Source: Eubacteriales bacterium (lineage in GTDB: Bacteria > Bacillota > Clostridia > Oscillospirales > CAG-382). Taken from it: a DNA stretch of 64,000 nt. This document shows, in pieces, positions 7,861 to 21,128 of this stretch. Below the pieces are notes generated by a model. It was not told the origin of the DNA. It saw only the letters and a program-made list of their open reading frames with translations, and ran no database searches. A program made the position numbers and the translations under genes. The first letter of the stretch is position 1. Every line of letters begins with the position of its first letter. Where the stretch lies: assembly GCA_045595165.1 (NCBI GenBank), contig JAZNZY010000003.1, positions 1,374 to 65,373 on the forward strand, read 5' to 3'.

Positions 7861-8555
7861 CCTTTTTTGGATTCTACGGCTCTGCTTATTTTCTTGATTG
7901 CATCGTCTGTCATGGCATCGGGATGTACCGTAAACATTACTTTTGCGTTATCGGTGCTTATTTCAATTACAAAGCATTCAACGTAGCGGTTTTTCTTTTT
8001 TATTTCCTTAGTGTAGCTTTTGTCAATAAGTTCGATATTCTTTATCTCGGAAAGAGGCGCGTTGAATCGGGTAATGTTCGTATCGCCGCTCATAAGGTCA
8101 AGATTGCCCGCAACAACGTACAGCGTATCCGGTGTATAAGTAACGGCGCCGCCGCCGTACCGGTCACAGCGGGGAGTGTTGTCCCCTCCGAACACCAAAG
8201 CGGTTATATCATTATCCCACAGCTCGTATCCGCCTGAAACGTAATCGAAAACGCGGTTTATCTTTGCGTGCTTTTCGGTTTCGTTTACAAAGCTTTCCAG
8301 CTCGTTTTCCAATTTCTTGTGGAAGGTAGCGGAATATTCATCCACCGAGCCATCCTTTATACGTACTGCGAAATGGCATATTATTACTACAACGCCTGCC
8401 ACTATAGTTAGCCAGGATGCCTGATACAACTGCCATTCGTGAAGCAGGAAATCATTGAGGAAGTACAGTATAATTCCCGCAATAACGATTCCCACACCCG
8501 TAAAAAGCAGTTTTTTCGTTTGAGTGAAATATTTTTTAAAGCTCTTTTTCTCCAT
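7857..8555 (-). CDS. Hypothetical membrane protein (2 N-terminal TM helices)
   Basis: ORF in operon with 4-bp overlap; hydrophobic segments. Confidence 0.7.
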   Translation of the reverse strand: MEKKSFKKYFTQTKKLLFTGVGIVIAGIILYFLNDFLLHEWQLYQASWLTIVAGVVVIICHFAVRIKDGSVDEYSATFHKKLENELESFVNETEKHAKINRVFDYVSGGYELWDNDITALVFGGDNTPRCDRYGGGAVTYTPDTLYVVAGNLDLMSGDTNITRFNAPLSEIKNIELIDKSYTKEIKKKNRYVECFVIEISTDNAKVMFTVHPDAMTDDAIKKISRAVESKKG

Positions 8556-8558
8556 TAA

Positions 8559-9734
8559 TTAACCTTCGACTTTCTTTATCGTGTCCTTCAGACTGTCATA
8601 AATTGCCTGTGCGTATGTTTTGTAGGTGGTATCCTTGGGATGCAATCCGTCGGTAAATATCTCCTTCTGTCCTTTTCCCCAGGTATACAGATCTATTGTT
8701 TCAAGTGAAAATTCCTCGGCGATCTGCTTTATGAGGGGAAGGGAATATGCGTCAATATTTGCGTTCCAGCCGTCGGCGTTCCAGTGATCCGTGCCTACCT
8801 TGAAAAGAGGTGTGGGCAGACAAATGTATATCTGTACGTCCTTGTTCTTTTTATAAAAAGAATTCAGAAGTGCTCTTGCGGAATTAAGGAACATATCCTT
8901 TCTGTCGGGATCGGACCAATCCTTCCAATCCTGACCGGGGTTGGAATCGTTGGTGCCCAGCGCAAATATTACCACGTCGGGATCAAACTTCAATGCGTCG
9001 CTGTACTGCTTGCTTTTTCCGTATGCGTAAGGATCGTTACTGCAGATGGAATATCCGCTCAGTCCCGCGTTAAGCACGCAGTAATCCCAGCCCAGCATTT
9101 GCTGAATGTATGCGGGATATGTCATATCGTTTCTTGTGGAGTTTATACCTTGGGTAATACTGTCGCCCACGCAGGCAACCTTTATAACCGGTTCGTTACC
9201 ACTGGTCATAAAATCCGTAAGATCTCCGTCTTTATCGGTCTTGCAAACTTTTATCAGCTTTTCCAAAGCAAAGTGCCAGCCGTTTGCATGGCTTCCCGCC
9301 AGCATGATCTTGGTTCCCTTTACTACCAGGGAATATTGACCTGCTTCAAAGGAATCTCTGTCAAAAGCGTTGCGCAGGCTTCTTCCCGATGTAAATCCCA
9401 CCAGAATCTCGTACTCAGTTTGGGCAACGGTATCGGGTACCGCTTTGAGAGTGTAACCGCAGTATTCCTGCAAAAATGCGTTTATCTCGTCAACTACCAG
9501 ACGGTAGTGGTTATAATTATCGTAGGTGGCGGAATTGCAGTAAACAATGGTAAATTCCTTAAGGCTTACACCGTTTACCGTAATCTCTCGGGGACCGAAT
9601 CCCTCGTCTTTGGATACTTCTTTGCTTTGTTCGTCGCTCGCGTCGGATACTTCGGGGGTATCGGTGCAGGCAAAAAGGGTAATGGTAAAGCAAAGGCAAA
9701 GTAAAAGCGCAATAATTTTTTTCATTTTGTTCAC
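8559..9734 (-). CDS. SGNH/GDSL esterase lipoprotein
   Basis: LFAC lipobox; GDSIT, N.G.SG, LGTND, DGLHP blocks. Confidence 0.85.
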   Translation of the reverse strand: MNKMKKIIALLLCLCFTITLFACTDTPEVSDASDEQSKEVSKDEGFGPREITVNGVSLKEFTIVYCNSATYDNYNHYRLVVDEINAFLQEYCGYTLKAVPDTVAQTEYEILVGFTSGRSLRNAFDRDSFEAGQYSLVVKGTKIMLAGSHANGWHFALEKLIKVCKTDKDGDLTDFMTSGNEPVIKVACVGDSITQGINSTRNDMTYPAYIQQMLGWDYCVLNAGLSGYSICSNDPYAYGKSKQYSDALKFDPDVVIFALGTNDSNPGQDWKDWSDPDRKDMFLNSARALLNSFYKKNKDVQIYICLPTPLFKVGTDHWNADGWNANIDAYSLPLIKQIAEEFSLETIDLYTWGKGQKEIFTDGLHPKDTTYKTYAQAIYDSLKDTIKKVEG

Positions 9735-9755
9735 TCCGCGTTAATTATTATATCC

Positions 9756-9784
9756 ATTATAATTGTTTTTTGTCCATATGTCAA
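9756..9784 (-). promoter_or_regulatory. Consensus sigma-A promoter
   Basis: TTGACA-17 nt-TATAAT on the minus strand. Confidence 0.8.
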
Positions 9785-9929
9785 TTGATTTAATATATAT
9801 TTATTGATACAACCGCCCTGTTTTTTCAATTTGCGTGTCTATGTACATATATGTTTATATAGACGGTGTATAATCAAGCAAATTGTCAAGAATATATACC
9901 TCTAATAAAATATATACATTGAGAGGTGT

Positions 9930-10139
9930 ATGGTAATGGTCAAAATTATTCTTGATAAAGCATTGAAAGACCGTGGTATGAGCAGATATCGCTTGGCTCA
10001 GCTTACGGGAACACAGTTTCAGGTTGTAGATAAATATTATAAAAACAAAGTAGTGCGTTACGATAGCTATTTGCTTGATAAGTTCTGTCAGGCGCTTAAT
10101 TGCGAAATAGGAGATATAATCGAATATATTCCCGAGTAA
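9930..10139 (+). CDS. Cro/C1-type HTH regulator (YozG-like)
   Basis: MSRYRLAQLTG..LDKFCQALNCEIGDIIEY pattern; GAGG RBS. Confidence 0.85.
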   Translation: MVMVKIILDKALKDRGMSRYRLAQLTGTQFQVVDKYYKNKVVRYDSYLLDKFCQALNCEIGDIIEYIPE

Positions 10140-10146
10140 AAAAGCA

Positions 10147-10171
10147 CGGCGCACCGTTTTGGTGCGCCGTA
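10147..10171. terminator. Intrinsic terminator between convergent genes
   Basis: ACGGCGCACC-GTTTT-GGTGCGCCGT. Confidence 0.75.
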
Positions 10172-10176
10172 TAATA

Positions 10177-10887
10177 TTATTTTAACGCTTCGTTTTGTAT
10201 TTCCATTATTTCCTTTAAGCCTTTTGTGCCCAAAGCAAGTAATTTGTTCAGCTCGTCTGCGGTAAAGGCTCTGCCTTCGCCCGTGCCCTGAATTTCTATA
10301 AACGCGCCGGTATCGTCCATTACAAGGTTCATATCCACCTCTGCGCTTGAATCTTCTTTGTAGCAAAGGTCCAGAAGGGGAGTATCTCCGTTTATACCTA
10401 CAGATACCGCCGCGATCTGATGCATCAAGGGATTTTTTGAAATTATACCCTGCTTAAGCCACTTTTTCACGCCAAGTGCAAGGGCAACGTATGCGCCGGT
10501 TATAGAAGCTGTGCGGGTGCCTCCGTCGGCTTGAATAACGTCGCAATCTATCCATATGGTCTTTTCGCCCAGGGCTTCAAAATCCACAGCCTGCCGCAAC
10601 GCTCTGCCTATAAGACGCTTGATTTCGGTACTGCGTCCGTCGGGCTTTAAGGTTTCTCTCTTTTTCCTTCCGCCGGTGGAGGAGGGGAGCATAGCGTATT
10701 CCGCCGTAAGCCAGCCTTTTCCCGTATCCTTTAAAAAGGGCATGGTGCCTTCCTCGATAAGCGCGGTGCATATAACACGGGTCTTTCCCCAGTTTATCAG
10801 TACGCTGCCGCCGGTTGTTTCGGTGAAGTTTACGGTTATATCAATATTTCTTAAGTTATCGGGCGTTCTTCCGTCAATACGATTCAT
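10177..10887 (-). CDS. rph: Ribonuclease PH
   Basis: RIDGR, GWLTAEYAMLP, RLIGRALR, ADGGTRTASITG, DSSAEVDMN, EIQGTGE. Confidence 0.97.
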   Translation of the reverse strand: MNRIDGRTPDNLRNIDITVNFTETTGGSVLINWGKTRVICTALIEEGTMPFLKDTGKGWLTAEYAMLPSSTGGRKKRETLKPDGRSTEIKRLIGRALRQAVDFEALGEKTIWIDCDVIQADGGTRTASITGAYVALALGVKKWLKQGIISKNPLMHQIAAVSVGINGDTPLLDLCYKEDSSAEVDMNLVMDDTGAFIEIQGTGEGRAFTADELNKLLALGTKGLKEIMEIQNEALK

Positions 10888-10917
10888 ATCAGCATCTCCT
10901 ATTGTTTTTATAAACGT

Positions 10918-10946
10918 ATTATATATAATACTATTTGAAAAGTCAA
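10918..10946 (-). promoter_or_regulatory. Sigma-A promoter of rph
   Basis: TTGACT-17 nt-TATAAT. Confidence 0.7.
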
Positions 10947-10971
10947 TCAAAATACATATACCGAGGTAAAT

Positions 10972-11379
10972 ATGTTTGGAAAATTATTAAGAGATTACCG
11001 TAAAAAACACAGAATAAGCCAAAAAGTTTTAGCCGTTATGAGCGGCGTTGACAGAAGCACTATTTCCCGAATCGAAAGAGGGACGGAGCAAACAGATAAT
11101 TGTGTTCAGGCAAAGCTTGTAAACGCGCTGCTGCGGAATACCCGCCATTTTCGCCCCGAAAACACCACGGGATACGAGCGGGGCGAACAGCTTGGTGTTT
11201 TGCTGGGTACACTTTCTCCCGAAATGGCGGATCGAGTATACAGAGATATTATAGAAAAACTCAAAGATTACGTGTCATTTCAGATAAATCTGGATATAGA
11301 AACCGTTTATCCCAAGGAAACAGTAACACGCCGCAAACGCAAGTATATGTATTATAAATTCGATTCTCCCATAGAATAA
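10972..11379 (+). CDS. XRE-family HTH protein
   Basis: LRDYRKKHRISQKVLA..GVDRSTISRIERG. Confidence 0.8.
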   Translation: MFGKLLRDYRKKHRISQKVLAVMSGVDRSTISRIERGTEQTDNCVQAKLVNALLRNTRHFRPENTTGYERGEQLGVLLGTLSPEMADRVYRDIIEKLKDYVSFQINLDIETVYPKETVTRRKRKYMYYKFDSPIE

Positions 11380-11383
11380 TCGT

Positions 11384-11410
11384 AAAAAAGCACTCGGAGG
11401 AGTGCTTTTT
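11384..11410. terminator. Bidirectional terminator
   Basis: AAAAAGCACTC-GGAG-GAGTGCTTTTT. Confidence 0.8.
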
Positions 11411-11416
11411 AAAATA

Positions 11417-11830
11417 CTATAATTTTCTGTTAAGCTTTTTGGTGGTCGCCTTTACGGAAAGATAAACTATAATCCATATTGTAAAATATCCTACCACAAA
11501 AATTGCCGTGAAAATAAGCACAGCCATCAGTTCAAAGGGTATCCATGTGTTGATGAGATAACATCCGACATATGCGATATAAATAGACGCGAAATGGCAA
11601 AGGAGCGATTTCGTAATCGGCCATTCCTCGATTTGGTTGAATACAGATGCTCCCGCCTGCACAAAAGCGAGAATATATGTTGATAATATGGCTATAAATA
11701 CCTGATATCCCGTAAGCGAAAAATCCGTTAACGTTTTTCCGAGAATGAGGAAAACAATCCCTGCGATTATAGGTCCGAATCCTCCGAAAGCGACACCGCG
11801 CTGTAAAAATCCTTTTAAATACTTGTTCAT
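11417..11830 (-). CDS. DUF3021-type membrane protein (putative inhibitor in a LytTR regulatory system)
   Basis: Four TM segments, IEEWPI..LLCHF motif, C-terminal KKLN; coupled to the LytTR gene. Confidence 0.8.
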   Translation of the reverse strand: MNKYLKGFLQRGVAFGGFGPIIAGIVFLILGKTLTDFSLTGYQVFIAILSTYILAFVQAGASVFNQIEEWPITKSLLCHFASIYIAYVGCYLINTWIPFELMAVLIFTAIFVVGYFTIWIIVYLSVKATTKKLNRKL

Positions 11831-12261
11831 TATATTCCTATCCTTTCTTTTACCGTTTTAAACTGTCTTCGGGAAACGTAATCTTTGTACCCGTTTTTGA
11901 ATATTATAAGCATACTGCCCGATACTGACACGTCAAATTTTTTGATCTGTTTGATATTTGCTATGCAGGATTGATTTATCTTAACAAAGTTTGCGGGCAG
12001 CTTTTCTTCGAGCTGATACAAACGAGGCTTGATGACAAGCTTTTCTTCTTTTGTAAGGGCATATACCTTGTTATCCTCGGTAATAAAACAATACACCTCT
12101 GCAAGGTCTATCTGCTTGTAGGAATAATCCGCATAACCCATCACGTTAAAATTATGCTCGTTCACCGCATCGCTTATGGTTTTGATCAACTCCGAGTTTT
12201 CGTGGGTGAAAATTATTATTTCTTCTTCTCTTGTTTTATCAATATTAATGGTCAGCTTCAA
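11830..12261 (-). CDS. Stand-alone LytTR DNA-binding regulator
   Basis: RLYQLEEKLP..FVKINQSCIAN, YVSRR; TTG start after AAAGGAGG; no receiver domain. Confidence 0.88.
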   Translation of the reverse strand: MKLTINIDKTREEEIIIFTHENSELIKTISDAVNEHNFNVMGYADYSYKQIDLAEVYCFITEDNKVYALTKEEKLVIKPRLYQLEEKLPANFVKINQSCIANIKQIKKFDVSVSGSMLIIFKNGYKDYVSRRQFKTVKERIGI

Positions 12262-12322
12262 AGCACGTCCTCCTTTCAAAAAATAATATACACCGTTTTT
12301 CCGCCGTTTTCAACTGTTTTGA

Positions 12323-12352
12323 GTATTCGGCGTTTTTTTCTCCGTATTCGGC
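12323..12352 (-). promoter_or_regulatory. LytTR-type direct-repeat operator
   Basis: GTATTCGGC-12 nt-GTATTCGGC perfect 9-bp repeat upstream of the LytTR gene. Confidence 0.75.
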
Positions 12353-12375
12353 AAAAAACACACTCTAAAGCAATG

Positions 12376-12401
12376 AAACCACCGGCTTAACCGGTGGTTT
12401 T
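12376..12401 (-). terminator. Intrinsic terminator ending the 12405-17658 gene run
   Basis: AAACCACCGG-CTTAA-CCGGTGGTTT. Confidence 0.7.
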
Positions 12402-12404
12402 GTC

Positions 12405-13232
12405 TCACTTTTTTATTCGCTTGAATTCTGCGGAAGGACGGGTACGAGTGAATCCGCACGACTTTGCAACAGCTTCCGATTCCGGAGTTATGGCATATCC
12501 GTAATGGGGGTATAGACCGTTTTTCAGCAGGTCGTAAGAAAAATGCAAGGTCAACAGCTTGCCGTAGCTTTTGCCACGATAAGCAGGAGCCACGTAAACC
12601 CAGCCGATATCATAATAATTACGAAATCCGCATTCTCCACGCAGGAAACCGATAATTTTATCTCCATCCTTTAAAAGATAGAGTCGGGTATCAAAAAAGC
12701 AATCGCAACTGTCAAACAGCTCTACGTTGCGAAGCTCCTCTTCCAATGCGTTCAAAACGGATATGTCTGCTGCCGCTGCCTTTCTGTCCTCTTCCGTGGC
12801 AAGGGAAACAATCACTTCTTGAGAGAGCGTAATTGGTGTCAGGTCATCGGGCGAAAGCAACCCGTAAATAGGCGCGCCTCTTTCCGATGAAACGAAAGAG
12901 AGCCTTTCAACTACATAAGGATGAACGAAGAACTCCTCGTATGTTGCGCTTACGTCGATCTCTTTTGCTGTCAAAGAGAAAATGAAGTCCGCGGCATCAT
13001 TCCAAAACTTTTCTTCCGGTGAATTGACGTTTATTACCAAAGAATCGTCCCAATAGGTTTTCACACAAACAAACGAATAAAGGCGTGGGAAACCATCCTC
13101 GGTGAAATATGCAATTTCTTTGATTTTATATCCGTCCCTGCCTGCCATCTCGGTATCGTAGCAGTAGTAAAAATAGCGATCTATATCCTGTGCAAACAGC
13201 GCAAGCATTTCCTCGTTGGATATCTTCTTCAT
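12405..13232 (-). CDS. GNAT family N-acetyltransferase
   Basis: VYVAPAYRGKSYGK acetyl-CoA motif, AKSCGF. Confidence 0.8.
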   Translation of the reverse strand: MKKISNEEMLALFAQDIDRYFYYCYDTEMAGRDGYKIKEIAYFTEDGFPRLYSFVCVKTYWDDSLVINVNSPEEKFWNDAADFIFSLTAKEIDVSATYEEFFVHPYVVERLSFVSSERGAPIYGLLSPDDLTPITLSQEVIVSLATEEDRKAAAADISVLNALEEELRNVELFDSCDCFFDTRLYLLKDGDKIIGFLRGECGFRNYYDIGWVYVAPAYRGKSYGKLLTLHFSYDLLKNGLYPHYGYAITPESEAVAKSCGFTRTRPSAEFKRIKK

Positions 13233-13244
13233 ATGTTCAGCCTT

Positions 13245-13898
13245 TTACAGTGTTTTCATCCAGTCTTCGATAATGGGAGTAATAATATTATATCCCGAAG
13301 AGTTGGGGTGGATATGGTCGGGCAGGTTGTCCGTAAGATGAGTTTTAAGCTTGTTTTTGTTTAAGTCCTCATCAAAAAACAGATCCAGATAAGGTATGCC
13401 CCATTTATCGCATATCTTTTTGGAAAGAGCAAAATATTCGCTCATGTCCGACATTCTTCCGAATTCAGCAGCAGGCATGGTAAAGGTAACGATAAACCCG
13501 AAGGTAGCGTCGGTGAAATTATCCTTTGCATATTTTATGGTGTTTTCAAAACCTCCCGCAAAGGTGGTAGTATCGAAAGGACCTTCAAATCCCTCTGTAA
13601 TTTCGCCTACGGGCGCACTTTCCCAAGCGTCGTTTCCGCCGCCTTCAAGGATCAGATAATCGTATTCGTTGCCCGTCATATCGATAAGCTGGTTTATAAC
13701 GGTATTTTCACCGCGGCAATCGGAAAGGGATGCGCCGCCCAGACTTCTGTTAAGCCCGCCCATCTCGTTTGCCTTCATAATTCTGCCTGCCCAGCCTACT
13801 TTATCGCCGTAATCGGCGGTATTTTTCTCGCAATAAGCCTCGCAAAGAGAATCTCCCACAAATAAAACACTTTTTCCATATAAAGGATTATTTTTCAT
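13245..13898 (-). CDS. SGNH/GDSL hydrolase
   Basis: GDSL, GG.ND, DHIHPN. Confidence 0.85.
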   Translation of the reverse strand: MKNNPLYGKSVLFVGDSLCEAYCEKNTADYGDKVGWAGRIMKANEMGGLNRSLGGASLSDCRGENTVINQLIDMTGNEYDYLILEGGGNDAWESAPVGEITEGFEGPFDTTTFAGGFENTIKYAKDNFTDATFGFIVTFTMPAAEFGRMSDMSEYFALSKKICDKWGIPYLDLFFDEDLNKNKLKTHLTDNLPDHIHPNSSGYNIITPIIEDWMKTL

Positions 13899-14452
13899 TC
13901 CGTTTCCTTCTTTCCGTAAATGTTTTCAAAATCTTTTTTGCCTAAATTCCACAGTTTTTTGCATATAAAGAACACGCCTGTAAGGAACACTGCGGTTATG
14001 GCAAGGTAAATAATCGCATACACCGCGCTGTCAATTACGTTTAACGGGCCGAAGGTGTATTTATCCACCCAAGCTCCGTAGATCAGGTTGTACCATTCGC
14101 TGGATACTTTGTCCAGATACCTTCTGAAGAACAGCACACAGCCCAGAAATCTTACGATCTCACCGATAATAACCAGACTCACCGTCTTTTTTACCCACAT
14201 ATTTTTATCTTCGCTTCTGTGGTAAAGGGCGGGGAATTTTATAAATAGGAATACGGATGTAACACCCCAGCTTATAACGAGGTGAAGTGCCGTCATAATC
14301 AGCAATGCAAGCACGTATACGGCGATATTGGTAAGGGCGTTTTTGAAAATTGCGTTTACTATCCAATAACTCAGGTTTGAGGATATTAGCATGGCAATAA
14401 ACGCTACCACCGCGTATATCGCCTTCATGTCCATAGATACTCTTTTTTCCAT
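13895..14452 (-). CDS. Hypothetical membrane protein
   Basis: About 4 TM segments; GGAGG RBS. Confidence 0.7.
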   Translation of the reverse strand: MEKRVSMDMKAIYAVVAFIAMLISSNLSYWIVNAIFKNALTNIAVYVLALLIMTALHLVISWGVTSVFLFIKFPALYHRSEDKNMWVKKTVSLVIIGEIVRFLGCVLFFRRYLDKVSSEWYNLIYGAWVDKYTFGPLNVIDSAVYAIIYLAITAVFLTGVFFICKKLWNLGKKDFENIYGKKETE

Positions 14453-14462
14453 ATAAAACCTC

Positions 14463-15356
14463 CTACAGTATCAAAGAAAGCCACAGGGGCAGGGTTACCA
14501 GAGAAAGTATGTGGGATATAAGTGCAAGCCGCGCGCCGGGCTTGCAATCCTCGCCCACAAGCTTGGGGAACACGATCGTGTTCAGTCCGCAGGGCATAAC
14601 GGTGATTATGAGTATAAAGGGGAGCAAAGCATCAAGCCCAAAGAGAGTGCATACCCCGTATGCGATTGCAGGGAACAATATAAGCCGCAGACCGCAGAAA
14701 ATATATGCTTGCTTGTTTATAAAAAGCTCCTTTAACGAGAAAGCGGCAAGGGTAATACCCGTAAGCAGCATGCTCAAAGGTCCCACGCAGGCAGATGCCA
14801 TAGACGTTACGGATGAGATTACATCGGGTATTTTTACAGATGTCATTCCGCATATCATACCAAGGACAATAGCGATCGTTATGGGGTTGATAAGCCGTTT
14901 TACGGGGTTCTTTCCTCCCGTGAGCATTGCGTAGCCCGCGGTGTAGGTGTAGATAATAAAGGGAATGGCAAAAAAGATAAAGTTGGAAAGCATCTCTTCG
15001 CCGAACACTCCCTCGATCAGAGCGTAGCCAAGGTATGCGTAGTTGGATATGGCAAAGGAATATCGGTATACCTTGCGTTCATAAGGGTGCTTTGTAATCA
15101 GCTTTGATGCAAAGTAAGCGGCAATAACCAAAATCAGCAGAAGTACTGCGGATACGGGTAAAAATATGTATTTTTCTTTAAAATCCGCAACCGTAAAATT
15201 GTTTGCAAAGGTGTTGAATATCTTGCAGGGCAGTAAAAGGTTTACAATAAGAACGGATAAAATATCCCCGCTTACCGCCTTTTTCCGCTTTCCTATAACC
15301 CATCCCGCAAACAAAAATATATACAGTATAAAAAGCTGCTTGAATACAAGAAACAT
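14463..15356 (-). CDS. AEC (auxin efflux carrier) family transporter
   Basis: Multi-TM; SNYAYLGY, NPITIA, PLSMLLTG, MPCG motifs. Confidence 0.85.
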   Translation of the reverse strand: MFLVFKQLFILYIFLFAGWVIGKRKKAVSGDILSVLIVNLLLPCKIFNTFANNFTVADFKEKYIFLPVSAVLLLILVIAAYFASKLITKHPYERKVYRYSFAISNYAYLGYALIEGVFGEEMLSNFIFFAIPFIIYTYTAGYAMLTGGKNPVKRLINPITIAIVLGMICGMTSVKIPDVISSVTSMASACVGPLSMLLTGITLAAFSLKELFINKQAYIFCGLRLILFPAIAYGVCTLFGLDALLPFILIITVMPCGLNTIVFPKLVGEDCKPGARLALISHILSLVTLPLWLSLIL

Positions 15357-15398
15357 CTGCGTATCTCTCCTTGGGGTTTTCCGTTATTACCTAATCCC

Positions 15399-15794
15399 CT
15401 ATTCGTTTGAATCAATATACTCCTGCAACGCCGTAATGTGAGCTTCGATATTGCCCGGGGGTTCGGGTATCAGCCAATCGTCGATACCCAGAATATCGTA
15501 ACAGCAGCACACGAAGAACGCGGCGTTCAGTGAATTCAAAGGCGTTTCCAAAGTGTAGGAAAGAATATAAGGCACACCCTCTTTTCCAAACTCCGCAAGA
15601 GCATTGTATTCTTCGGGATATTGCTCGGTATACAGCGTGGGATCGGATAAATTCGTTACCATTATATGAAACGCCGTGTATTCGGCACTTACGTCGATTT
15701 TTTCCATAGTTTTATATATTTTCGCCTTTTGTCCCGTGCAGGAAGCAAGCGTAATGCAAAGCAGAATGGCGAGGAAAAAAGCTGTTTTTTTCAT
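15399..15794 (-). CDS. Hypothetical lipoprotein
   Basis: MKKTAFF..LASC lipobox. Confidence 0.7.
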   Translation of the reverse strand: MKKTAFFLAILLCITLASCTGQKAKIYKTMEKIDVSAEYTAFHIMVTNLSDPTLYTEQYPEEYNALAEFGKEGVPYILSYTLETPLNSLNAAFFVCCCYDILGIDDWLIPEPPGNIEAHITALQEYIDSNE

Positions 15795-15826
15795 AAGTAA
15801 TTCTTTACCTCTCAAAGAGTTGAAAT

Positions 15827-16282
15827 TTAAGACTGCGTTGTTTTTTTGAGTATTGTTTCTATAATTTCGGTTTCCGCTTCTTTTCCGTAAGCGTAAAGCG
15901 TAACAGTCACTTTTGAGCCGTCTTTTAGAGTCAAGGCGTGAAAAAAGCAATCGCCGGTATAAATTACGTCGCCTTTGCGAAATGTACTTTTTACGGATAT
16001 GACTTCTTCAAACCGAATAACCGTTTTTCGTAAAAGTCTTTCTCCGTTTTTTTCAGCACCTCTCGGAAAAATGATTTTTTCGGAATCCATCACCAAATAT
16101 CTGCTTTTTTCTGCAAGAAAAGCGGCAAGAAAGATTACACTTGTCATACCGCCGAGCAGCGCAAATCCAAATCCGACAGAAAAATCAACAAATGCCAATA
16201 TTACTCCGACTGCCGAAATCACGGCACAAGACAAAGTAACGATTGCCAACGGTTTTGTAGCACGGGATGTGTATTTTTTCAT
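15827..16282 (-). CDS. Hypothetical membrane protein (2 TM plus PH-like beta domain)
   Basis: AAGGAG RBS; hydrophobic N-terminus. Confidence 0.65.
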   Translation of the reverse strand: MKKYTSRATKPLAIVTLSCAVISAVGVILAFVDFSVGFGFALLGGMTSVIFLAAFLAEKSRYLVMDSEKIIFPRGAEKNGERLLRKTVIRFEEVISVKSTFRKGDVIYTGDCFFHALTLKDGSKVTVTLYAYGKEAETEIIETILKKTTQS

Positions 16283-16303
16283 AAGCACTCCTTTTTTGCT
16301 CTG

Positions 16304-16828
16304 TTATTCTTTTTTCGGTAACGTATGTACGAAAGATAAAAGCTTGATTAAATTTTGAATCGACTTGGGATTTCTTGCTTGATCTCTGTAATGAAACGAA
16401 ATCAAATCGTAAATATCCGTTAAGCCATCCGGATACAAAGTACTGAATTTTTTGATAAAGTCGGGGGCTCCGATCAGAATCCCGATTCCGGATTCAAGCC
16501 CTTCTTCAATTACAATAACCCAATCAAATTTATCGGATGTGATAAAAGATACCGAATAAAGATTCAAGTTTATATATTCCTCGTAGGACATTGGCAGGTC
16601 AAACCGAAACGTTTCACCGGAATCGTTTTGCGCAATATAAAGAGCCTTGTAAGAAGAAGTAATATCCATCAATGCGTCAAACTGCTTTTTGTTCAGCCAA
16701 AGGTCGTCTGTGTTATACAGCAGGGCGGTCGGAATATCGGAGGGGATGTTTAAATCCAATATTGAATCATTGATCTTGCTTTCGCCCAAAAAGAGTTTTA
16801 ATTTCTCAACAAGGTCTTGCTTTGTCAT
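16304..16828 (-). CDS. Hypothetical protein (possibly toxin-immunity-like)
   Basis: Start MTKQDL after the repeated RBS; function inferred only. Confidence 0.6.
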   Translation of the reverse strand: MTKQDLVEKLKLFLGESKINDSILDLNIPSDIPTALLYNTDDLWLNKKQFDALMDITSSYKALYIAQNDSGETFRFDLPMSYEEYINLNLYSVSFITSDKFDWVIVIEEGLESGIGILIGAPDFIKKFSTLYPDGLTDIYDLISFHYRDQARNPKSIQNLIKLLSFVHTLPKKE

Positions 16829-16847
16829 TCGTATCACCGCCTTTCGT
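16829..16847. repeat. 19-bp direct repeat, copy A
   Basis: TCGTATCACCGCCTTTCGT, identical to 17658-17676. Confidence 0.9.
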
Positions 16848-17658
16848 ATATTTGTGTACAGTAATTTTGGCAGAAATCCTTCACAACAGATTTTATGGAA
16901 CCGTCTATTCGCATATCGCAAAAGCGTTTTATATGTTCGGGAATTTCTTTATAATATGCTTCTGCAATTCCGCCGGCGATACAAGCCTGCGTATCTGCAT
17001 CACCGCCGAGAGAAACGGCATTTCTGATGGCGCTTTCATAATCTGTTGATTCCAGAAACGCAATTATGGCCGGAGGAACGCTGTATGATGTACGGCTGTC
17101 GAACACGTGAGTTTCTTTTATAGCGGAAAGGGGAACAGACAGCTTGAATTTGAATGTTTTTTCCAAATATGTCTTTATGTTTTCTTTGCTCTCTCCGTTT
17201 CGTGCCAAAAAGACTGCAGCGGCAACAGCTTGTGCGCCTTTTATTGCCTCTTTGTGGTTGTGCGTGGAAATACAACTCGCTTTTGCTTGCAAAAGTGTCT
17301 GTTCCAAAGTATTGTAGGCATATCCGATAGGGATCACACGCATGGATGCACCGTTGGCATAGCTGTGCCCGTTTTTTGAATACGGGTCTTTCGCCCAAGC
17401 GGTGAACATATTGCCGAATCCGGCATGGGGATGATACGAATAATATCGGCGGTATTGAGCGGCGTATTCTCTTGAACGGGCGCGGATACTCCATTTGGAT
17501 ATATCGTTTGGAGCAGTAATTATTGCTTTACATACCGCCGCAATCAAAACGCTGTCATCGGTAAAGAAACTGTCTTTATTGAATTCAAAATTATAATCCT
17601 TTGTACAATGCACTTCATAGTACGAGCCGATTACATCTCCGTATATTGCGCCAAACAT
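16834..17658 (-). CDS. ADP-ribosylglycohydrolase (ARH/DraG family)
   Basis: GAIYGDVIGS, FTDDS, SYANGASMR, STH, LGGDADT. Confidence 0.92.
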   Translation of the reverse strand: MFGAIYGDVIGSYYEVHCTKDYNFEFNKDSFFTDDSVLIAAVCKAIITAPNDISKWSIRARSREYAAQYRRYYSYHPHAGFGNMFTAWAKDPYSKNGHSYANGASMRVIPIGYAYNTLEQTLLQAKASCISTHNHKEAIKGAQAVAAAVFLARNGESKENIKTYLEKTFKFKLSVPLSAIKETHVFDSRTSYSVPPAIIAFLESTDYESAIRNAVSLGGDADTQACIAGGIAEAYYKEIPEHIKRFCDMRIDGSIKSVVKDFCQNYCTQIYERR

Positions 17659-17676
17659 CGTATCACCGCCTTTCGT
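17658..17676. repeat. 19-bp direct repeat, copy B
   Basis: TCGTATCACCGCCTTTCGT, identical to 16829-16847. Confidence 0.9.
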
Positions 17677-17682
17677 GTTTTT

Positions 17683-17711
17683 ATCATATCACAATTTCTT
17701 AAATAAATCAA
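17683..17711 (-). promoter_or_regulatory. Sigma-A-like promoter heading the minus-strand gene run
   Basis: TTGATT-17 nt-TATGAT with extended TG. Confidence 0.6.
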
Positions 17712-17723
17712 GGCGCAAGACTT

Positions 17724-17899
17724 GTATATCATCCGCAACTTGTTGCGGTATGGAATTGGCACGAAGTGCCGTATGGAATCATCACGAAGTGATGTATGGC
17801 ATCAATCCGAAGGTGGATACACGCTGACGCGTGATGCCATACGCCTGCGGCGATTCCATACACCCTGCGGGTGATTACATACCAATCCTTCGGATTGGA
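17724..17899. repeat. Nested inverted-repeat and hairpin ladder element
   Basis: GTATGG(A/C)AT(C/T) at 17748, 17771, 17794; inverse GAT(G/T)(C/A)CATAC at 17833, 17852, 17873; units separated by short hairpins. Confidence 0.85.
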
Positions 17900-17900
17900 T

Positions 17901-17936
17901 AGCAAAAAGCACTTGCGAAAGCAAGTGCTTTTTGCT
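17901..17936 (-). terminator. tRNA terminator
   Basis: AGCAAAAAGCACTTGC-GAAA-GCAAGTGCTTTTTGCT perfect stem. Confidence 0.85.
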
Positions 17937-18011
17937 GGCAGGGATAGCTGGATTCGAACCAGCGAGATGACGGAGTCAAAGTCCGTTGCCTTACCGCTTG
18001 GCTATATCCCT
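17936..18011 (-). tRNA. tRNA-Gln (UUG), CCA encoded
   Basis: Cloverleaf AGGGATA..GCCAAGCGGTAAGGC..ACGGA-CTTTGAC-TCCGT..GCTGGTTCGAATCCAGC-TATCCCT-G-CCA. Confidence 0.97.
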
Positions 18012-18029
18012 ATATTAAATTGCCAAATG

Positions 18030-18058
18030 ATTATATAACAAATAACTCTTTTTGTCAA
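18030..18058 (-). promoter_or_regulatory. Consensus sigma-A promoter of the tRNA
   Basis: TTGACA-17 nt-TATAAT. Confidence 0.85.
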
Positions 18059-18140
18059 GAGAAATAAAAGCAAGAGTTTTGTTGATTTTATTAGCATTAT
18101 ATGTTAAAATGCTTATATTAAAGTGCGCGAGGTAGTAAAT

Positions 18141-19958
18141 ATGAAAAAATGGTCTTTTTACACTTCCAATGAAATAAAGCCTTTGGGATGGGTAAAGCGT
18201 CAGCTTGAAATACAGGCGCAGTCCCTTTGCGGAAACCTACACAAGGTCTGGCCCGATGTGCGTGACAGCAAGTGGATCGGCGGTACGGCAGAAGGCTGGG
18301 AGCGTGTCCCTTATTGGCTGGACGGATTTATACCCATGGCGTATCTCCTTGAAGACGAAGAGCTTATTTCCGTAGCCCAAAAATATATGGACGCAATACT
18401 CTCTTTCCAACAGCCCGACGGATGGCTGTGCCCCTGCGAAGAGGAAAAGCGTCCCACTTACGATACCTGGGCGGTGTTGCTGCTTTCCAAGGTGCTCACC
18501 GTGTATTACCAATGCTCGGGCAAAGAGCAGGCGGTGGATGCGCTGTATAAAATGCTTAAAAACTATCACGAACTGCTCAAAAACGGCACGGTAAAGCTGT
18601 TTGAGTGGGGAAAATACCGTTGGTACGAAGGATTTATCGCTATCGACTTTTTGTATTCCCGCTGCGGCGAAGAATGGCTTTTGGACCTTGCTCGCATACT
18701 TAAAGAGCAGGGAATGGATTACGATACTGTAACCCACCTCTGGGAACGCCCTATGAACTGGTGGCGGTTTGATACACATATAGTAAACCTTGCAATGATG
18801 CTTAAATCCGAAGCGGTATCTGCGGCTCTTCTCGGTGATCAGTACACGGATAAAGCACAAAAATACTACGATATTCTGGAAAAGTACAACGGTATGCCCG
18901 CAGGCGTTTTCACGGGGGATGAATGTCTTTCCGGCGTAAGCCCCATTCAGGGCGCGGAGCTTTGCTCGGTAGTGGAATTAATGTATTCCTATGAGCATCT
19001 CTATGCCTGCACCGGGGATAAAAAGTGGGCGGAACGTCTGGAGAAAATTGCCTTCAACGCACTTCCCGCCGCTATAAGCGACGATATGTGGGCGCACCAG
19101 TATGTTCAGCAAAGCAACCAGATATCCTGCATACGCTTCCCCGGAAAATCCGTTTTCCGCACCAACAACAGCGAAGCCCACCTTTTCGGTCTTGAGCCCA
19201 ATTTCGGATGCTGTACGGCGAATTTCGGTCAGGGCTGGCCCAAGCTTGTGCTGTCCTCATTTATGTATAACGGGGATAGGGTTATAAATGCCGTTCCCGT
19301 TCCCTCGGTACTTAAGACGGAGGACGTATATGTTTCTCTTGAAACCGAGTATCCCTTCAAAAACACCTTTAAATACACCGTAAAAGCGGAAAAAGATTTT
19401 ACTCTCGTTCTCCGCGTGCCCACCTTTGCCGTCGATTATACCGTTAACGGCGAAAAAGCGTGGGTTGAGGAGGTTTCCGTGCCCGTAAAGGCAGGGGAAA
19501 ACAAGGTCATTAACGTGTCCTTTGAAGTAACACCTCGTTTTGAAAAACGTTCGGGCAACCTCAACACGGTGGAAATGGGCTCTCTGCTGTTCTCCCTGCC
19601 CATAGAGTACCGCACCCTTATAAAGGAATACGAGCGTGACGGTGTGGAGCGCAAATTCCCGTACTGCGATTACGAATATTACCCCGAAACTCCTTGGCAG
19701 TTCGGCTTTGCGGATACTGCTTTAAAAGCAGAATACCGCGGTGTTACCGAAACTCCTTTTTCTTCCCACAATCCCCCCGTTATCGTAAAAGCGAGCGTAA
19801 ATGAAATCGCTTGGGGCTATGCGGACGGATACGATACCGTCTGTGCAAAATATCCCGAGAGCCGCGAGGGCATTGGCGAAGTGAAGGAGATAGAACTGTA
19901 TCCTTACGGCTGTGCAAAGCTTCGTATGACTGAGCTTCCTTTCTGCGAAGAGGAATGA
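18141..19958 (+). CDS. GH127/GH146-like beta-L-arabinofuranosidase domain protein
   Basis: GWERVPYWLDG, H.VN, ELCSVVE.M.S, E..AFNALP, CCTANFGQGWP. Confidence 0.85.
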   Translation: MKKWSFYTSNEIKPLGWVKRQLEIQAQSLCGNLHKVWPDVRDSKWIGGTAEGWERVPYWLDGFIPMAYLLEDEELISVAQKYMDAILSFQQPDGWLCPCEEEKRPTYDTWAVLLLSKVLTVYYQCSGKEQAVDALYKMLKNYHELLKNGTVKLFEWGKYRWYEGFIAIDFLYSRCGEEWLLDLARILKEQGMDYDTVTHLWERPMNWWRFDTHIVNLAMMLKSEAVSAALLGDQYTDKAQKYYDILEKYNGMPAGVFTGDECLSGVSPIQGAELCSVVELMYSYEHLYACTGDKKWAERLEKIAFNALPAAISDDMWAHQYVQQSNQISCIRFPGKSVFRTNNSEAHLFGLEPNFGCCTANFGQGWPKLVLSSFMYNGDRVINAVPVPSVLKTEDVYVSLETEYPFKNTFKYTVKAEKDFTLVLRVPTFAVDYTVNGEKAWVEEVSVPVKAGENKVINVSFEVTPRFEKRSGNLNTVEMGSLLFSLPIEYRTLIKEYERDGVERKFPYCDYEYYPETPWQFGFADTALKAEYRGVTETPFSSHNPPVIVKASVNEIAWGYADGYDTVCAKYPESREGIGEVKEIELYPYGCAKLRMTELPFCEEE

Positions 19959-19961
19959 GAA

Positions 19962-21128
19962 ATGGAAAAAATACGCGAATATTTCGAAAAATCTCTTTTG
20001 GCAGGCGCAAAAAGATTTGTTATAAGCAACCCCGTTTCCAAGGATGCACAGTACAAAAAGATTATTGCCGATAAAAAGTCAGCGGGATTTCAGATTGCCA
20101 AATATACCGAAAAGCAGGTGTTTCACGAAAACGTTTCGGAAACCGACCTTGCTATACGCTGTGCGGAGCTTGTTTACGGCAACTACAAGCAGGTAAACGG
20201 CTTTGCCGAAAATAACGAGCATATCCTGCTCATTTCCAAAAAAGGCGTAAGCAGATATTCGGTAAAGAAAAGCGCCTCCTTGTCTGTGCCCGAAAGCACG
20301 CAGCATAACAGAGAGAAAAACTATATCCTTTCCCAAGGAGAAAACATCCCTCCGCTTATAGATATGGGAGTGTTTACCAAGGACGGCAAGGTAATAAACG
20401 CTATGTACCACAAGTACAAGCAGATAAACCGCTTTCTGGAAACGGTGGACGATGAAATTTCCGCATACCCTTCGGAAACCTTAAACGTAATAGATTTCGG
20501 CTGCGGGAAATCATATCTTACGTTTATTCTTTATTATTACCTTACCGCCGTTAAGGGCAAAAAGGTAAATATGATAGGTCTTGACCTTAAAAAAGAGGTA
20601 ATAGAAAAGTGTGAAGCTTCTGCACGTAAATACGGCTACGACGGATTGCATTTTGAGCTTGGAGATATAAACGGCTATAAGGCTCCCTTTAAGGTGGATA
20701 TGGTGGTTACTCTCCATGCTTGCGATACCGCCACCGATCACGCTTTGTATAACGCTGTAAGCTGGGGTGCGAGGATGATCTTTTCCGTGCCCTGCTGCCA
20801 GCACGAGCTGAACAGGCAGATGCAGCCGAAAAATCTTGATATAATCTCCCGTTACGGCATTATACAAGAGCGTTTTTGCGCCCTCGCCACAGATGCCATA
20901 CGGGGAAATATATTGGAATACTGCGGCTATAAGACCCAGATAATGGAATTTATCGAACTTGACCATACCCCGAAAAATATCCTTATCCGCGCCGTAAAAC
21001 GTCCGTCCACCCCCCAAAAAGTAAAACAAAAAGCGCTGGACGAGATAAACGCAGTCATAAACGAATTCGGCTTTAAGCCAACGCTTTACCAGCTTTTAAT
21101 ACAAAAAAACGACACTTGTGTAGTATAG
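19962..21128 (+). CDS. Class I SAM-dependent methyltransferase
   Basis: IDFGCGKSYL, LHACDTATD, VPCC, HTPKN. Confidence 0.88.
   Translation: MEKIREYFEKSLLAGAKRFVISNPVSKDAQYKKIIADKKSAGFQIAKYTEKQVFHENVSETDLAIRCAELVYGNYKQVNGFAENNEHILLISKKGVSRYSVKKSASLSVPESTQHNREKNYILSQGENIPPLIDMGVFTKDGKVINAMYHKYKQINRFLETVDDEISAYPSETLNVIDFGCGKSYLTFILYYYLTAVKGKKVNMIGLDLKKEVIEKCEASARKYGYDGLHFELGDINGYKAPFKVDMVVTLHACDTATDHALYNAVSWGARMIFSVPCCQHELNRQMQPKNLDIISRYGIIQERFCALATDAIRGNILEYCGYKTQIMEFIELDHTPKNILIRAVKRPSTPQKVKQKALDEINAVINEFGFKPTLYQLLIQKNDTCVV

Follow-up and report, generated by a model that had tools for sequence, protein, structure and literature searches.

A repeat-bounded ADP-ribosylglycohydrolase gene at a variable locus behind tRNA-Gln in gut Clostridia

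We analysed a 64,000-nucleotide stretch, here called the window, of the Eubacteriales bacterium assembly GCA_045595165.1 (contig JAZNZY010000003.1, positions 1,374 to 65,373 of the forward strand), in which a gene for an ADP-ribosylglycohydrolase (ARH) is bounded exactly by a 19-base direct repeat that carries ribosome-binding sites. The 829-bp unit so delimited is present in some relatives and absent from others, with the repeat as the junction. In the reading that we hold to have somewhat better than an even chance, the locus 3' of a tRNA-Gln gene is a hypervariable expression site at which host recombination stacked alternative alleles, duplicating a leader and making ARH precisely deletable. 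A preliminary description of the window had proposed a single-gene cassette inserted in the manner of an integron; its exactly repeat-bounded, dispensable unit in a variable array stood up to comparison, and its mechanism, and probably its direction of change, did not. The source genome, G000, is 2.05 Mb in 39 contigs and 97% complete, with the window on the 88-kb contig C3. The comparison set comprised 61 related genomes including G000, 10 of which (G000-G009) form the genus set; window positions 8000-20000 were aligned to the same locus of the other genus genomes, and Logan contigs from four animal-gut metagenome runs (X1, X3, X5, X6) were compared at a similarity threshold of 88%. Loci cut from relatives carry L labels (L027, L031 and L037 in G007, L030 in G006, L033 in G001, L028 in G008, L004 in G003, L005 in G002, and L032 in G005).

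The 19-mer TCGTATCACCGCCTTTCGT has exactly two matches in the window, an upstream copy at 17658-17676 and a downstream copy at 16829-16847, both read on the minus strand (coding strand ACGAAAGGCGGTGATACGA), and no others even when up to 3 mismatches are allowed; 0.03 would be expected by chance, and two or more matches arose in 0/100 shuffles. A search of all 39 contigs likewise returned just the two bounding copies, with no further copy at up to 2 mismatches (reversed control, 0). Ungapped extension of the repeat gives 23/25 identical bases. The upstream copy is the ARH leader: it contains the near-consensus Shine-Dalgarno-like GAAAGGCGGTG, and on the coding strand its final A opens the ARH ATG. 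Homologous leaders precede ARH in G004 (CAGAAAGGCGGTGAGGCAATG) and G007 (ACGAAAGGTGGCGATGCAGTG). The downstream copy encodes the end of ARH (..TAC GAA AGG CGG TGA) and is also the Shine-Dalgarno leader of the next gene, for a 174-aa protein, whose ATG lies 1 base further on. The repeat and this double use of it, as ribosome-binding site on one side and as stop and ribosome-binding site on the other, are thus as first described. G000 holds 118 merged exact direct repeats of at least 19 nt within 3 kb, most of them belonging to tandem paralogues or palindromic elements; repeats of this kind never arise by chance, yet the base-rate count alone does not single out the 19-mer pair. Contigs of run X1 span both junctions (pieces 16646-17034 and 17360-17715, 1 differing letter each), so the layout is not the product of one assembly alone, although X1 may be the source sample of G000. 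The upstream copy starts (17676) 7 bases past the -10 hexamer TATGAT (17688-17683) of a predicted promoter, and because of this position the 19-mer is predicted to be the 5' untranslated leader.

G002 and G003 carry the 174-aa gene without ARH, preceded by a single copy of the 19-mer. The left flank of this copy matches that of the downstream G000 copy at 44/45 bases and its right flank matches the promoter flank of the upstream G000 copy at 30/45, and either flank matches the opposite G000 flank at no more than 14/45. The two genomes are closely related (95-99% identity in two housekeeping genes) and are therefore treated as a single event. In run X5 a contig joins 16828 to 17658 with 829 bases skipped and 19 bases that fit either side, and carries a 174-aa gene 95% like that of the window. 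Alleles lacking ARH and keeping one repeat copy, which the preliminary description had suggested seeking, were thus found in G002, G003 and one X5 contig; the two genes are not always linked, and the 829-bp unit shows a presence/absence polymorphism exactly at the 19-mer. Gaps in contig cover over ARH or the 174-aa gene (some of X3, X5 and X6) were not counted as absence. A metagenome scan for further loci with the 19-mer gave 3, all from one unrelated sequence without similarity to the window, which were set aside as chance matches and added no alleles.

The ARH gene (16834..17658, minus strand) encodes a 274-aa protein with a match to PF03747 (ADP_ribosyl_GH; E 1.2e-30, 107.7 bits, cut-off 26.2) that covers positions 3-286 of the 287 in the profile. 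It starts directly at the conserved GAIYGD motif, level with profile position 3, and so has no N-terminal extension. Its nearest solved relatives are ARH3 enzymes (E 8e-14), with whose YTDDT and GGDTDT its FTDDS and GGDADT align; these TDD(S/T) and GGDxDT motifs are those that we take to bind metal in ARH. ARH is probably an enzyme reversing ADP-ribosylating toxins, and enzymes of the PF03747 superfamily serve as immunity against such toxins, for example Tri1 (Ting et al. 2018, via PMC8120803, in part).

ARH occurs in 12 of the 61 related genomes. Within the genus it was found in G004 (86% identity) and in G005 and G007 (82-84%, at contig ends), in each at the same locus, in the same orientation and right behind the promoter, and not in G001 (83% complete), G002, G003, G006, G008 or G009 (76% complete). 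The homologous leader at this shared locus and a G+C content of 43.5%, near the genome mean of 45.6%, speak against ARH as an inserted cassette. DNA homology to the ARH genes of G004, G005, G007 and G034 ends at 16874, and by eye the tail of the G000 gene resembles an ancestral ..CTGATTACATAG end minus two bases, whose loss would let the frame run through to the leader's TGA; of the 120 best relatives listed, most are 267-270 aa long, aligned over just 96-98% of the ARH query. Among 5.8 billion proteins the best match outside its own 98% cluster is 85% identical. Phage collections yielded no relative, and 16 plasmids match just ~140 nt of conserved ARH sequence at 73-77% identity. The G007 assembly breaks within ARH (L027 1-534, contig C15; L031 1-441, contig C7), and the two contig ends share 141 identical bases, which may point to strain heterogeneity at the locus in that sample.

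Start-site repeats also bound other blocks of the locus. A 12-mer (CTTATGAAAAAA on the coding strand) lies over the start codon of a 153-aa gene (upstream copy, 16274-16285, minus strand) and over that of a predicted lipoprotein gene (downstream copy, 15786-15797, minus strand), and counts 6 in the genome with both strands included. In G003 the 153-aa gene is absent exactly between the 12-mers, and the single copy there has a left flank equal to the lipoprotein side (50/50) and a right flank matching the leader of the G000 153-aa gene. Another block of G003, of two genes, lies between the copies of a 52-nt repeat (94% identical, spacing 989) that takes in a Mem_trans transporter gene's start codon and first 17 codons; G002 has one copy. 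The ARH gene of G004 stands between two direct copies of a 64-nt sequence (98% identical, spacing 911) comprising promoter and leader, and the downstream one serves a WapI-like gene. Four blocks in the locus are thus flanked by duplicated translation-start regions of four sequences and lengths (19, 12, 52 and 64 nt), and because the repeats differ in both respects they fit homology-driven joins, not one recognition site.

The stretch from tRNA-Gln to the transporter gene is hypervariable, and its first gene differs in nearly every species: ARH in G000, G005 and G007, the 174-aa gene in G002 and G003, and others in G001, G004, G006, G008 and G009. Read from the tRNA, the G000 allele consists of a terminator hairpin, a nested-stem element (the ladder), the promoter, leader and ARH, leader and 174-aa gene, the 153-aa gene and the lipoprotein gene. 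G002 has another repeat element, the same promoter, leader and 174-aa gene and a terminator; in G003 the G002 arrangement is extended by a truncated second transporter start, a 147-aa gene and the lipoprotein gene. The allele of G004 runs ladder, 312-aa gene, ladder fragment, ARH, WapI-like gene (PF24716, 32.2 bits, cut-off 27) and more, and those of G005 and G007 run ladder, ARH, ladder fragments and conserved genes. G001 has another first gene behind tRNA-Gln, ladder and promoter. The whole tRNA-plus-array unit is inverted in G006 and G008, each with a different first gene, and G009 has another gene directly before a GH127-like gene; no tRNA was found on the G009 contig, which ends 631 bases upstream. 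In the inverted units (L028 12155-12339 in G008; L030 994-1168 in G006) the array faces the GH127-like gene, not the transporter.

Other joins appear in metagenome contigs (15797 to 17687 in X6 and 15356/15367 to 16303/16304 in X5), as do similarity breaks at 16833 in an X6 contig with ARH and at 16345 in an X3 contig, where either another neighbour or a copy below the 88% threshold would follow. Between G000 and G002/G003 identity is 93.5-94.6% for the 174-aa gene, against 84.5-88.8% for two housekeeping genes; in the lipoprotein region G000 and G003 agree at 96%. The locus has a reticulate history.

The 174-aa gene (16304..16828, minus strand), a candidate polymorphic-toxin immunity gene without a Pfam family, has a G+C content of 37.5%, 8 points under the genome mean. 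It was found in 5 of the 61 related genomes including G000; the products in G002 and G003 have 90-91% amino-acid identity to that of G000, and G005 and G007 hold relatives at 28-29% elsewhere in their genomes. Protein atlas matches were to unnamed clusters only. Its structure model (pLDDT 87) gave no Foldseek match at E <= 0.001, and the best VIA-align match, to the CdiI immunity protein 5t86_I (Z 6.4, rmsd 3.1, 102 residues), is too weak for a safe fold assignment and serves as a hint only.

Polymorphic-toxin hallmarks occur at 4 of 7 more distant loci of the 174-aa family (L006, L007, L074-L078). A PT-HINT toxin tip (40 bits, cut-off 27.7) stands directly upstream of the relative in L078, a SUFU-family protein adjoins it in L076, an RHS-repeat protein lies near it in L077, and in L006/L037 an orphan RHS-type tip, its motif recognised by eye, stands two genes upstream. 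L007 is without toxin hallmarks; in L075 the relative adjoins a large serine recombinase, and in L074, from another genus, it lies behind tRNA-Trp, a ladder and a promoter. In L037 (10250-12340, contig C28 of G007) the RHS-type tip has its own promoter and, as its sole Pfam match, a TseH-like domain at 19.5 bits, under the cut-off, and is followed by a membrane protein and then by a 189-aa relative of the 174-aa gene. On composition and neighbourhood the 174-aa gene looks immunity-like and acquired. The array genes are co-oriented and two of them are low in G+C (37.5% and 39.8%); the sole family-level immunity match is the WapI-like gene of G004, and Pfam gave no or only sub-threshold matches for the 153-aa and lipoprotein genes of G000, the 147-aa gene of G003 and the first genes of G001, G006, G008 and G009. 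We put it at about an even chance that the array is a small orphan-immunity locus.

The sequence of events that we favour starts from strains and species holding alternative alleles behind a common promoter (P) and leader (L), such as P-L-ARH, P-L-174aa and others, at a site where a few small accessory genes, all in one orientation, would stand behind ladder and outward promoter, at least some of them being immunity-type genes against contact-delivered toxins. The 19-mer would be ARH's own mRNA leader, Shine-Dalgarno sequence plus spacer, a second copy of which now serves the next gene. Host recombination may have stacked two such alleles, with one end of the incoming fragment anchored in the conserved flank and the other joined at a gene boundary, either illegitimately or through short homology. 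The shared start region between the join and the start of homology would thereby be duplicated, giving P-L-ARH-L-174aa, and the duplicated leader would keep the newcomer translated. Since the leader is duplicated, ARH would be precisely removable by recombination or slippage between the copies, and the single-copy state of G002 and G003 would be either such a deletion product or the parental P-L-174aa allele. Stacking of this kind would need no dedicated integrase and would account for variable-length repeats at translation starts, the retained downstream ribosome-binding site and the missing enzyme gene. ARH would be the old resident and the 174-aa gene the acquired one, an order favoured because G004, G005 and G007 also have ARH at this locus, behind related leaders, and because of the G+C content and tail context of ARH and the shorter length of its relatives.

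Several points weigh against allele stacking with ARH as the resident. ARH is not found in G006, the closest relative, or in G002, G003, G008 and G009, and with so patchy a distribution parsimony does not choose between at least 2 losses and a loss followed by regain. G000 ARH is 79-80% identical to three clade-II genes that are themselves 87-91% alike (housekeeping genes, 80-82%), so its history is not simply vertical. The model does not account for an ARH-type leader first standing exactly at the start codon of a foreign 174-aa gene, and it leaves unexplained the coincidence of the 19-mer with the predicted transcription start, a rule that the G004 and G003 repeats break. Nineteen base pairs of homology are short for RecA-type exchange. 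A trans-acting recombinase is possible in an assembly that is 97% complete in 39 contigs, and no ongoing excision was seen in the metagenome evidence, which consists of contigs, not reads. The immunity role rests on gene neighbourhood and on one Pfam hit in another species (WapI-like, G004), and 7 other variable genes of the locus are without a Pfam family. An unlikely alternative is that, still by host recombination without an integrase, ARH and the ladder upstream of it are the newcomers in G000: a fragment tRNA-ladder-P-L-ARH of another lineage would have been anchored through homology in tRNA-Gln/GH127 and joined illegitimately at its other end to the 5' edge of a resident leader in a G002-like P-L-174aa allele. 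G000 does differ from G002 and G003 not by ARH alone but also in what separates tRNA from promoter (a ladder versus arrays of 7-base units); its ladder and ARH resemble those of G004 (82% and 79%), and its 174-aa-to-transporter side resembles G002/G003 (93-96%). The absence of ARH from G006 and its divergence beyond that predicted from the clade-II rate point the same way. Against this, the G000 promoter and leader are 91% identical to those of G002/G003 (35 identical bases) and unlike those of G004, so that the donor would have come from the same gene pool; the G+C content of ARH matches the genome, and no closer donor appeared among the 5.8 billion proteins.

An integron-like arrangement, with ARH as a single-gene cassette in an attI/Pc-like layout, had been the preliminary interpretation; that a site-specific recombinase encoded elsewhere moves ARH as a mobile cassette into and out of a 19-bp site now seems very unlikely. 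The exact repeat at both ends, the precise empty site, the promoter-proximal position and the strain-variable array agree with it, as does the precedent of rAID-1 in Bacteroidales, with integron-like repeats and a XerD-type recombinase (bioRxiv 10.1101/471110, in part). Against it stand the recombinase search, in which tyrosine recombinases (PF00589) had 8 matches in G000 (C17, C6, C19, C26, C22, C8) and serine recombinases (PF00239) 2, none of either on the 88-kb C3, and the 19-mer, which in the 10 genus genomes occurs exactly at this locus only (8 matches at 3 mismatches, 23 for the reversed control) and whose 3 metagenome matches are all unrelated. The unit ends (16829-16853 and 17658-17682) have no inverted repeats and no attC-like sites, the repeats of neighbouring units (12, 52 and 64 nt) are unrelated, and no plasmid or phage relative extends beyond the 140-nt conserved ARH motif. 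It is also doubtful that translation-start regions are the regular crossover sites of a gene-collecting system that stacks and drops single open reading frames behind the tRNA-linked ladder and promoter, although four repeat-bounded blocks, the equality of the 19-mer with the predicted 5' untranslated region, and a ladder and promoter ahead of a 174-aa relative at tRNA-Trp in another genus are compatible with it; such a system would use an unrecognised enzyme or transcript-templated capture and would be a Clostridial counterpart of the integron with none of its parts. That same equality, the upstream 19-mer starting 7 bases past the predicted -10, is what would recommend an RNA-templated origin, in which the downstream copy is the 5' end of a reverse-transcribed leader-174aa message inserted after ARH. 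This origin is highly improbable: the transcription start is a prediction, similarity continues weakly for 6 bases beyond the 19-mer (23/25), the G004 repeat includes the promoter itself and the G003 repeat includes coding sequence, and no reverse transcriptase was seen, none having been specifically searched for. Finally, 11 of the 19 bases are a near-consensus Shine-Dalgarno sequence that could be selected twice, so the copies might be two look-alike strong ribosome-binding sites; this coincidence is in effect refuted by the empty-site alleles, the indel boundary falling exactly on the repeat in two species and one metagenome contig, and the other 8 bases and a C variant within the Shine-Dalgarno sequence are also identical, with 2 copies only in 2.05 Mb.

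Homology-facilitated illegitimate recombination and short-repeat deletion have been described in transformed Acinetobacter, Streptococcus and Bacillus. The allele stacking that we favour in this uncultured genus resembles them in its homologous anchor, microhomology join and variable junction duplications, and in that units between 12-64-nt repeats would be lost precisely with no dedicated enzyme. The array shares with integrons promoter-proximal, co-oriented, repeat-bounded and strain-variable single-gene units, the first of them read from a fixed promoter (a predicted site, conserved before different first genes in G002, G003 and G006). Unlike in integrons, the contig has no integrase and no attC-like imperfect palindromes, and the repeats are the genes' own translation-start regions, which differ from unit to unit, the 19-mer being used once. 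As at tRNA-linked integrase islands, variable DNA lies on the 3' side of a tRNA gene, but the units are single genes without an integrase and there is no direct repeat of the tRNA 3' end: even with 3 mismatches allowed, the last 25 nt of tRNA-Gln match nothing in the window but the tRNA itself, and there is no repeat at the far border.

rAID-1 clusters of Bacteroidales, as set out in parts of bioRxiv 10.1101/471110, hold up to 31 orphan immunity genes with a 5' XerD-like recombinase and integron-like repeats. The present array likewise combines gut bacteria, low-G+C genes that are candidates for orphan immunity, repetitive intergenic sequence and strain-variable content, but it belongs to a Clostridia genus, in another phylum, has 1-4 genes behind a tRNA and no recombinase, is headed by tRNA-Gln and ladder, and contains genes of which only some are callable as immunity-like. 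Polyimmunity loci (Zhang et al. 2012, PMC3482391, in part) are also tandem, co-directional rows of unrelated genes that vary in number and type between strains, and in heterogeneous ones the immunity genes are probably on one message; they are usually longer and often adjoin XerC/D, and duplicated leaders or start codons at junctions do not belong to their description in the parts of that source used here. The immunity protein Tri1 has an N-terminal extension that plugs the toxin and is encoded beside that toxin (PMC8120803, in part). ARH resembles it as a member of the PF03747 superfamily, an enzyme able to undo toxin ADP-ribosylation, and stands among immunity-type genes; it differs in lacking the extension and in having the 174-aa gene and the promoter as neighbours, with no ADP-ribosyltransferase toxin adjoining.

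If the favoured reading is true, gut Clostridia keep a small slot behind tRNA-Gln for swapping single defence-type genes between strains and species without mobile-element machinery, the duplicated leader marking where a gene was gained and at the same time allowing it to be lost cleanly. Orphan-immunity arrays, so far mainly of Bacteroidales and Proteobacteria, would then extend to ruminant-gut Clostridia, and gene turnover precise to the open reading frame would have a concrete anatomy, with junctions at start codons. For annotation, identical leaders before adjacent genes can signal recent recombination, and the repeat-bounded gene is not necessarily the mobile partner.

The head of the array is formed by tRNA-Gln (UUG; 17936..18011, minus strand; ARAGORN, and Rfam RF00005 at 66.3 bits), on whose 3' side the variable array lies and which 8 further genus genomes also have at this locus. 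Next comes a perfect 16-bp hairpin (17901..17936) with a 4-nt loop and flanking A/T runs, an inverted repeat of 100% complementarity that is likely a two-way terminator after the tRNA. The ladder (17712..17900, minus strand) consists of nested stems with GTATGGAAT/ATTCCATAC-type rungs and small side hairpins; as RNA it folds at -75.5 kcal/mol (z -4.73; 0/200 shuffles equal it), and in an Rfam search of ladder and leader the tRNA was the sole match, two sub-threshold plastid families being taken as noise. Its end, CGCCTTGATTT, contributes the -35 of the array promoter, a promoter-like site at 17683..17711 on the minus strand (TTGATT-17-TATGAT with a TG extension, 9/12 consensus). The ARH unit is first in line behind this site and beside ladder and tRNA, the layout already read in the preliminary description. 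A consensus scan of the region gave 8 promoter-like sites of this grade against 7.2 expected from shuffles; the region is not enriched for such sites, and the promoter is better supported by conservation in relatives than by the scan, its sequence recurring before the 174-aa gene in G002 and G003 and before another gene in G006.

Beyond the two repeat-bounded leaders the G000 array continues with the 153-aa gene (15827..16288, minus strand; probable ATG at 16282, hydrophobic N-terminal half, G+C 39.8%, without a Pfam family) and the small predicted lipoprotein gene (15399..15794, minus strand; MKKTAFFLAILLCITLASC.., lipobox by eye, without a Pfam family), which is 96% identical in G003. The conserved left border is the Mem_trans (AEC-type) transporter gene (14463..15356, minus strand; PF03547, E 1.8e-29), syntenic in G002, G003, G006 and G008 and conserved together with the sequence on its left, and the conserved right border past the tRNA is the GH127-like glycosidase gene (18123..19958, plus strand; PF07944, E 1.4e-14), present in 10/10 genus genomes.

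The ladder is dispersed. Further G000 copies lie at C21:56919-57165, C21:143634-143800, C21:81890-82060 and C18:49071-49200, and each copy was seen directly behind a tRNA gene and terminator, ending in CGCCTTGATTT with an outward-promoter -35. A specific tie of the ladder to immunity arrays was rejected, as the genes behind the other G000 copies are ordinary or unknown. Summed contig depth of the ladder was 146-383 in 2 of the 4 animal-gut runs (X1 and X5), with flanking genes at ~3-19. Ladders at tRNA-Gln in sister species have the same build and different rungs, ACATCATT in G001, G006 and G007 (L033, L030, L027) and ATATCAC in G008 (L028), and a GATTTCAT-type ladder and promoter lie between tRNA-Trp and the 174-aa relative in L074 (3200-3420). 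Ladder types are discordant with the species tree, G000 grouping with G004, and G006 with G007 and G001. The ladder position of G002 and G003 (L005/L004 2100-2290) holds small hairpins surrounded by inverted arrays of 7-base units (CACTTTT.. / ..AGTGAAT).

Two junction sequences recur among alleles of the array. A boundary of the form ..ACATAGG..TCGTT(T)GCAAGCATGG.. follows the first gene whatever its identity: behind ARH in G005 and G007, where it includes the ARH stop codon, behind the 312-aa gene in G004 and behind a 108-aa membrane protein in G008 (L009 2440-2470; L031 440-470; L032; L028 13005-13060). The spacer AGAATAACA(G/C)AG(C/T)AAAAAGGAGTGCTT (window 16286-16310; L024 1000-1030) joins different gene pairs, 174aa-153aa in G000 and 147aa-lipoprotein in G003, with similarity starting at the stop codon of the upstream gene.

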